The position numbers were made by a program, and so were the translations under genes. The notes beneath the pieces were generated by a model. The model searched no databases. It worked only from the letters and a program-made list of their open reading frames with translations, and had not been told where the DNA came from. Positions 35,602-47,955 of a DNA stretch of 64,000 bases are shown one piece after another (position 1 is the first letter of the stretch; each line of letters opens with the position of its first letter). Location: the NCBI GenBank assembly GCA_018238155.1, contig JABCTZ010000003.1, positions 164,289-228,288 of the forward strand, written 5' to 3'. The DNA is from Candidatus Heimdallarchaeota archaeon (lineage in GTDB: Archaea > Asgardarchaeota > Heimdallarchaeia > JABLTI01).

Positions 35602-35678
35602 TGGAGCCGCTGACGGGATTTGAACCCGCGATCCTTTGATTACGAATCAAATGCTTTACCGAGCTAAGCCACAACGGC
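35602..35678 (-). tRNA. tRNA-Thr(CGU), intronless, CCA encoded
   Basis: Reverse complement GCCGTTG..GCTT..AAGC TTTGA-TT CGT AA-TCAAA GCGGG TTCAAAT CCCGT CAGCGGC T CCA folds as a cloverleaf. Confidence 0.96.
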
Positions 35679-47763: not shown

Positions 47764-47778
47764 GGCAAACTTTAAAAA
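47764..47778 (+). promoter_or_regulatory. Putative BRE/TATA promoter of the permuted 5S gene
   Basis: GGCAAAC-TTTAAAAA about 25-30 bp upstream of the processing stem. Confidence 0.5.
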
Positions 47779-47806: not shown

Positions 47807-47955
47807 AAAACTCATCACCGGAAGTTAAGCCTTCATACGTAGTGATAATTACTGATCTGAGAGATCGTTCGGGAACATCATTAAGCTGCGTTGCGACGCG
47901 GTCAAAGCTGGAGGGCAACACCCGGACCCGTCCGATCCCGGAAATGGTGAGTTTT
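47807..47955 (+). other. Precursor processing stem with BHB/BHL-like motif around permuted 5S
   Basis: AAAACTCATCA (47807-47817) pairs with TGGTGAGTTTT (47945-47955); CCGG/CCGG 4-bp helix; AAG and AAA unpaired 3' of each CCGG. Confidence 0.85.
47824..47943 (+). rRNA. rrf: 5S rRNA, circularly permuted (canonical 3' part 47824-47892 precedes canonical 5' part 47895-47943)
   Basis: GUUAAGCC...UACUG...GGGAAC...GCUGCGUU then GACGCGGUCAAAGC...GGGCAACACCCGGACCCGUCCGAUCCCGGAA; helices I, II, III and V pair; 120 nt. Confidence 0.92.

Follow-up and report, generated by a model that had tools for sequence, protein, structure and literature searches.

The window analysed here is a stretch of 64,000 nt from Candidatus Heimdallarchaeota archaeon (assembly GCA_018238155.1, contig JABCTZ010000003.1, positions 164,289-228,288, forward strand), whose genome of 4.08 Mb is 90.7% complete. 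A circularly permuted gene for the 5S ribosomal RNA (rRNA) lies at 47824-47943 on the plus strand, with the 3' half of the molecule written before the 5' half. No 5S match was found in the window at the Rfam gathering threshold of RF00001 (38 bits). At a relaxed threshold, two adjoining half-matches to RF00001 were obtained, with scores of 17.5 and 16.6 bits, which meet at 47894/47898. The first of them is the 3' part of the 5S rRNA, from GUUAAGCC through GCUGCGU, and the second is the 5' part, from ACGCGGUCAAAGC through CCCGGAA. The permuted gene does not reach the RF00001 threshold because the order of its halves is swapped, and a model written in the permuted order gives it 136.3 bits. The two swapped half-matches thus identify the 5S gene as circularly permuted and the hairpin at their meeting point as helix I with its natural end strands joined. 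Moreover, the rotated sequence was collinear over its full length with canonical Asgard 5S genes. Rfam revealed no canonical 5S gene in the host genome, and the permuted-form model matched it once; the permuted locus is the sole 5S rRNA gene of this genome.

The features of the locus are listed below with the evidence on which they are based.

47771-47778 (+): TATA-like box TTTAAAAA of a putative stand-alone promoter, with AAACGGCAAAC just before it (conserved block)
47809-47817 (+): leader arm of the outer helix, AACUCAUCA, which pairs with 47945-47953 (cofold; covariation in the genus)
47818-47821 (+): leader strand of the central 4-bp helix, CCGG, which pairs with 47938-47941 (cofold, motif search)
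47822-47824 (+): leader-side 3-nt bulge AAG, where the predicted cut leaves G47824 as the first 5S base (motif search)
47824-47884 (+): canonical 3' part of the 5S rRNA, with the outer pairs of helix III, the 3' strand of helix II, helix V, loop E, helix IV with its GAGA loop and loop A (Rfam halves, comparative fold, canonical alignment)
47885-47891 (+): natural 3' strand of helix I, GCUGCGU (sequence, comparative fold)
47892-47895 (+): UGCG tetraloop capping helix I, at the site of the natural 5S termini (sequence, cap comparison)
47896-47902 (+): natural 5' strand of helix I, ACGCGGU (sequence, comparative fold)
47903-47943 (+): canonical 5' part of the 5S rRNA, with loop A (CAAAG), the 5' strand of helix II, helix III, loop C and the end ...CCCGGAA (Rfam halves, fold, alignment)
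47938-47941 (+): CCGG with a dual role, which in the precursor is the trailer strand of the central 4-bp helix and in the mature fold belongs to helix III as its 3' strand (cofold, comparative fold, motif search)
47942-47944 (+): trailer-side 3-nt bulge AAA, with the predicted cut after A47943 (motif search)
47945-47953 (+): trailer arm of the outer helix, UGGUGAGUU (cofold, motif search)

A preliminary description of this DNA had proposed that the strands which are normally the free ends of helix I are joined here, and positions 47885-47902 read exactly GCTGCGT TGCG ACGCGGT. The assignment of these strands to the 3' and 5' sides of helix I was borne out by the collinear canonical alignment and by the meeting point of the Rfam halves. 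The stem consists of seven pairs (G.U, C-G, U.G, G-C, C-G, G-C and U-A) and the loop is UGCG. Thus, whereas the 5' and 3' ends of an ordinary 5S rRNA are free and come together in helix I, the strands are connected here through 47892-47895. The linker had been given as 2-4 nt; its length is 4 nt, and a loop of 2 nt is sterically impossible. Hairpins with a 7-bp stem and a 4-nt loop occur 102 times on the plus strand of the window and 89 times on average in its shuffles. The hairpin by itself is at chance level, and its support comes from its place in the 5S fold and from comparison.

The fold was evaluated on 53 distinct Heimdallarchaeia sequences against a standard 5S model of 36 pairs written in gene order. 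In this model 95.1% of the cells were paired, compared with 24-44% in slid registers, and none of 500 shuffles reached the observed pairing. Changes on both sides were recorded at 27 of the 36 pairs. All 36 pairs fit the three-armed 5S architecture, with helix I as the first arm, helices II-III with loop C as the second and helices V-IV with loops E and D as the third. Helix I is paired in every one of the 53 sequences, with compensatory changes at four of its seven pairs (the variants include GCUGCGU/ACGCGGU, GCUGCAC/GUGCGGU, GUUGCGA/UCGCGGC and GCUGAAG/CUUCGGC), and the length of its hairpin varies only from 17 to 19 nt.

The same two adjoining half-matches were present in nearly all of 40 relatives, which are collinear with the window in nhmmer. 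The covariance model built from the 53 Heimdall sequences was used to scan 151 Asgard genomes, and strong full-length matches (49-156 bits) were obtained in about 82 of them, representing 20 families. Canonical 5S genes above the Rfam cut-off were found in 48 of the 151 genomes, all from six other families (excluding the artefact described below), and no genome carried both forms. These results bear on the possibility that the locus is a decayed or non-functional relic and that the real gene lies in an unassembled part of the genome. The completeness of 90.7% and the two low Rfam scores would fit such a relic; however, in about 82 genomes, closed ones included, there is no 5S candidate other than the permuted layout and a canonical 5S is absent, and the gene shows strong covariation and a conserved promoter block. 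We therefore regard a relic as extremely improbable.

Several genomes deserve separate mention. The closed genomes of Ca. Heimdallarchaeum aukensis and endolithica (G016 and G026) contain two permuted 5S copies each and no canonical one. An apparent canonical 5S gene in the relative G036 (an Rfam match of 38.4 bits) was rejected, as the match covers the 5' half of a further permuted gene, whose cap has the loop UUCG. In this GC-richer genome of the Heimdall class, permuted 5S genes are located at the very end of contigs C90, C132, C77 and C106, which suggests a multi-copy gene at assembly breakpoints. At loci L011/L075, an extra partial copy of the 3' half alone was detected about 350 nt upstream of the permuted 5S (nhmmer, 56 bits), and it is probably a remnant of duplication.

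The flanks of the 5S gene in the window have the 3-4-3 geometry of the archaeal bulge-helix-bulge (BHB) motif, with an outer helix of 9 bp, a centre of 4 bp and bulges on opposite strands. The central helix and the two 3-nt bulges formed by leader and trailer are placed so that joining restores the canonical sequence. Predicted cutting and joining gives CCCGGAA-GUUAAGCC, the universal sequence of helix III and loop C, and the joined sequence is identical whether the cut falls after bulge base 0, 1 or 2. The outer helix measures 9-10 bp in all relatives from the genus and shows compensatory changes, e.g., CAUCA/UGGUG versus CAUCG/CGAUG, while relatives with CUGG in the leader centre keep the pairing via G.U.

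The comparison was extended to 99 permuted Asgard 5S sequences from 20 families (the 53 Heimdallarchaeia sequences and 46 from other families). When these were searched blindly, the best motif had the same BHB layout in nearly all sequences outside the Heimdallarchaeaceae. There, the outer helices are 8-10 bp long and unrelated in sequence, the centre is 4 bp and the bulges include AAG/AAA and AAA/GAA; the trailer bulge is most often AAA or GAA across families. The join always restores GGAA-GUUAAG or its equivalent. The ring predicted from these cuts has 120-122 nt in 54 of the 55 loci for which it could be derived (120 nt in the window), which is the length of an ordinary 5S rRNA. A search of JGI metagenome contigs for the cap together with the joined junction detected no joined form in DNA, as expected if joining occurs only in RNA; the only matches were four 5S genes of the ordinary archaeal type that happen to be preceded by GCTG.

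A single BHB structure imposed on all 53 Heimdall sequences was rejected, since it reached a pairing of only 68.5%, a value explained by the shifted centre and the local hairpins of the Heimdallarchaeaceae. The loci of this family (such as L025, L005 and L009) have a leader hairpin as well as a trailer hairpin followed by a U-run, and retain the 4-bp centre and the AAA bulges; judging from this arrangement, their flanks appear to be an unusual split form of the splice motif. About 30 extra bases beside loop C and the splice joint were observed in L140 (G015:C30), L185, L187 and L179, which come from some Hod-type, f13 and f5 genomes.

In 10 relatives from the genus, the block AAACGG[CT]AAACTTTAAAA is kept at a distance of about 30 nt before the leader helix. 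The conservation of this block, AAACGG[CT]AAACTTTAAAAA, suggests that the 5S gene is a transcription unit of its own with a putative promoter.

Genes for a splicing endonuclease and for a ligase are both encoded in the host genome: two of the EndA family (PF01974, 93.1 and 64.9 bits) and one for RtcB (PF01139, 572.6 bits). By inspection, the Tyr/His/Lys catalytic motif is kept in one EndA paralog and absent from the other, which suggests an endonuclease of the alpha-beta type. RtcB joins the 2',3'-cyclic phosphate and 5'-OH ends left by splicing-endonuclease cleavage. The BHB flanks together with EndA and RtcB lead to the prediction that the new ends are ligated and that a closed 5S of 120 nt results. 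According to the proposed pathway, the gene would be transcribed from its own promoter, 3' half first, and the leader and trailer would pair into the BHB motif with its 9-bp outer helix, its two bulges of 3 nt and the CCGG/CCGG helix between them. Both bulges would be cut by the splicing endonuclease, probably an alpha-beta enzyme of the two EndA paralogs, and RtcB would join A47943 to G47824, rebuilding CCCGGAA-GUUAAGCC of helix III. The cap would never be opened, and the covalently closed ring of 120 nt would be the ribosomal 5S.

The same flanks could also give rise to a permuted 5S that remains linear, with its ends trimmed and either left unjoined or joined in a minority of molecules. Such an RNA would keep its helix I capped, would have a nick between A47943 and G47824 and would be held together by helices II and III. 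The permuted 5S of brown-algal mitochondria is a precedent (Valach et al. 2014, PMC4267664), as its helix I is likewise a closed hairpin and its final product is linear and permuted; unlike the Asgard gene, it is organellar and of independent origin, its ends lie at the three-way junction and it involves neither a BHB motif nor ligation. In E. coli, a 5S with its opening in loop C is tolerated as well; this position is near the natural break point of the Asgard 5S, and the opened molecule is one of the designs of the 23S-cp5S rRNA (Huang et al. 2020, PMC7283268). That RNA carries a 4-nt connector between the native 5S ends, and cells grow with ribosomes that contain it, which are active in translation. 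No part of the 23S rRNA comes closer than 50 Å to the native ends (PMC7283268), and this distance, together with the functioning of the linked E. coli 5S, makes a capped helix I physically plausible. The construct differs from the Asgard 5S in that it is artificial, bacterial and fused into the 23S rRNA, not a free ring, and assembly defects were seen. Against a linear product stand the flanks themselves, which are built as a substrate of the splicing endonuclease and not as simple ends, as well as the exact restoration of the universal sequence and normal length by the join in 20 families and the presence of RtcB in the genome. A linear permuted 5S is thus unlikely, although its probability is appreciable.

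The analysis of the cap showed a closed hairpin in all 99 sequences, with a loop of 3-5 nt (78 tetraloops, 18 triloops and three pentaloops). The most frequent loops were UUCG (32), UGCG (20) and UACG (6), which together make up 58 of the 99 caps and are represented in 13 of the 20 families; a further six caps have CUCG, CGCG or CACG. Since relatives are counted as well, these are not independent events, but the loops clearly recur from family to family. Among random 4-mers, UNCG is expected in 1.6%. The loop of the window, UGCG, is a UNCG tetraloop. It lacks the C-G closing pair of the C(UNCG)G form, the closing pair being U47891-A47896, and the Heimdallarchaeaceae have A-U at this place. Within the genus, stems are nearly identical and the loops are UGCG, CGCG, CUCG, UGUG, AAUG or UUCG, so that length is fixed and sequence free.

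In families f12, f20, f21, f23 and f25 the cap is longer by 3-6 bp, giving hairpins of 11-13 bp. The extensions differ in sequence and yet are paired (CCCC/GGGG, CCCGC/GCGGG, GUUCC/GGAAC and AUCCCCC/GGGGGA), and they terminate in UUCG or GNRA-type loops. The claim of the preliminary description that no removable spacer separates the natural ends was thus upheld across the 99 sequences, the longer versions being paired stems. In the Heimdall sequences helix I has 7 bp, compared with 9-11 bp in canonical Asgard 5S, and the 4-nt loop takes the place of two terminal pairs. No conserved cleavage motif, bulge or unstructured spacer was found in the 99 caps. Being free of bulges, helix I is unsuited to the splicing endonuclease, and the preservation of loop length with variable sequence favours a structural cap over a sequence-specific cleavage site. 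On this comparative evidence, the cap appears to behave as a structural element, not as a processing site, and the tip of the extended caps would have the behaviour of a small expansion segment, not of a spacer that is discarded. One cap deviates from the others: L186 (G156:C7:20038-20340), from a Loki-like f13 genome, has an insert of 31 nt directly 5' of its UUCG loop. Removing the insert restores ACUGUAAA-UUCG-UUUACGGU, which matches the relatives, and the insert could be an intron or an expansion.

The cutting and joining in the proposed pathway are predicted from the motif and the enzymes, and the absence of later nicking is its least certain part. A permanent circle had also been suggested in the preliminary description. 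The comparison supports the structural cap and the predicted ligation on which that suggestion depends, while we infer the persistence of the ring as against later nicking. A permanent ring is favoured because there is nothing to trim, no mark of a cut is present at the cap, the loops belong to the most stable class and the extensions stay paired. We hold with moderate confidence, from comparison of the sequences, that the ring would be the working form of the 5S and would persist in ribosomes.

Several observations weigh against this conclusion. Minimum-free-energy folding of the 120-nt ring yielded a z-score of about -0.3, and helix I was the only part of the comparative model that it reproduced; thermodynamic folding of 5S rRNA is usually uninformative. 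No regular helix is present on the inner side of the leader bulge, and the motif is therefore of a relaxed kind; splicing endonucleases of the alpha-beta type accept relaxed motifs. The Heimdallarchaeaceae are without the long outer helix. Finally, many archaea re-open their circular pre-16S and pre-23S RNAs before these are used (as cited in PMC12918454 and PMC4267664), so a ring can be an intermediate.

If the Asgard ring were such an intermediate, a nuclease would open the cap loop and release a linear 5S in canonical order with a helix I of 7 bp; nicking in this loop had also been raised in the preliminary description. The re-opening of circular pre-16S and pre-23S RNAs in other archaea, and of permuted pre-tRNA circles in Cyanidioschyzon, speaks for this course of events. 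However, neither a spacer nor a bulge is present at the cap, its loop sequence is not conserved, elements resembling a tRNA or a BHB motif are absent, and its loops are of the most stable class. Compensatory pairing in the cap extensions would be needless in a segment that is cleaved or discarded, and the helix I left after opening would have two pairs fewer than that of canonical relatives. A re-opening of the ring at the cap accordingly has a small probability in our assessment.

The permuted tRNA genes of Cyanidioschyzon merolae (Soma et al. 2007, as cited in PMC4267664) illustrate the difference. In the account given there, their 3' half precedes the 5' half, as in the Asgard 5S, and a BHB-type junction is cut and joined via a circular RNA. 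The intervening sequence between the natural ends is removed by end-processing enzymes and the circle is an intermediate, whereas the Asgard 5S has only a loop of 3-5 nt. Neither a removable intervening sequence nor a recognisable processing signal at the natural ends was present in the 99 permuted Asgard 5S sequences.

A further alternative is a mixed population, in which rings and molecules nicked at various places are both present in ribosomes and the covalent state is not under selection. Circles of canonical 5S occur at a low level beside the linear form in Sulfolobus and Halobacterium (PMC3326292), which lends it some plausibility. In Sulfolobus, 5S circles of 123 nt were enriched by RNase R (Danan et al. 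2012, PMC3326292); the circles of both genera are minor, were reported without validation by reverse-transcription PCR and are possibly products of decay (PMC3326292). Circular 23S rRNA, a precedent for a ring as the working form, has been reported within archaeal ribosomes, and archaeal 5S, unlike 16S and 23S, is stated not to be processed through circularisation (PMC12918454). The circular 23S and the minor 5S circles resemble the proposed Asgard ring as closed rRNAs in or beside archaeal ribosomes, but their genes are in the normal order. The conservation across the phylum of both the cut-and-join motif and the stable cap points to selection on both closures, and a mixed population without such selection seems quite improbable.

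The closest parallel to a permanent 5S ring is the signal recognition particle (SRP) RNA of Thermoproteus tenax and T. uzoniensis, which is permuted and stays circular (Plagens et al. 2015, PMC4731332). In both cases, the gene for a universal non-coding RNA is written in permuted order and hence seems to be missing. The leader and trailer of the SRP RNA form a BHB motif that is cut by the tRNA splicing endonuclease and the ends are ligated, and the same layout is predicted for the 5S gene. The SRP RNA ring is the mature form that binds protein, and the helix of the natural ends is replaced by continuous sequence, as in the Asgard 5S. The two systems differ in the RNA concerned and in range, the SRP RNA being known from two species of one genus and the permuted 5S from 20 Asgard families. 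Moreover, the Thermoproteus ring was shown by RNA-seq, northern blots and enzyme assays, while the Asgard 5S ring is predicted.

In full-text literature searches, no description of a permuted or circular archaeal 5S gene was found; they returned the organellar permuted 5S, the engineered E. coli construct, the minor 5S circles and the statement on non-circularisation. The mechanism is thus of a known kind, that of permuted RNA genes matured through a BHB motif, and a hairpin-sealed, endless 5S across a phylum would be new. The evidence tips narrowly towards the view that the ribosomal 5S of most Asgard archaea, among them the Heimdall group nearest to eukaryotes, would be an endless closed ring with helix I capped and helix III spliced. 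The 5S rRNA has so far been treated as a universal linear molecule, and a hairpin-sealed and spliced 5S, if real, would be the first endless small rRNA. The distribution places the permuted 5S in the lineage nearest to eukaryotes; if the ring is real, a circular 5S was probably present in the archaeal ancestor of eukaryotes, and the linearity of the eukaryotic 5S would be a reversion. Since the cap has neither a spacer nor a cleavage signal, there is no obvious way back to a linear form. The permuted layout also explains why the 5S gene seems to be missing with standard tools in about 82 of the 151 Asgard genomes, and the covariance model of the permuted 5S can be used for annotation.

The arm of helix IV and loop E had been described as non-standard, which turned out to be the result of a register slip, as the arm is of the standard archaeal type. 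The register that covaries throughout the class is CUG-AUC-U-GA-[GAGA]-UC-GUU-CGG, with a bulged U and a GNRA loop, and canonical Asgard 5S has the same bulged-U, GNRA-capped arm. The alternative GAUCU-GAG-AGAUC, a 5-bp arm with a GAG triloop, was rejected, because it requires a U-A pair that nine of the 11 closest relatives, with the sequence GAGCGAUC, have lost. Peculiar to the genus is a U.U mismatch in the helix IV arm. Likewise, loop E (47847-47851) reads AUUA in the genus and AGUA or GUA in other Asgard 5S, permuted or canonical, so that the normally conserved G of the loop E motif is replaced.

Apart from the 5S locus, the window contains an ordinary tRNA-Thr (CGU) gene at 35602-35678 on the minus strand, which is its sole Rfam match above threshold.
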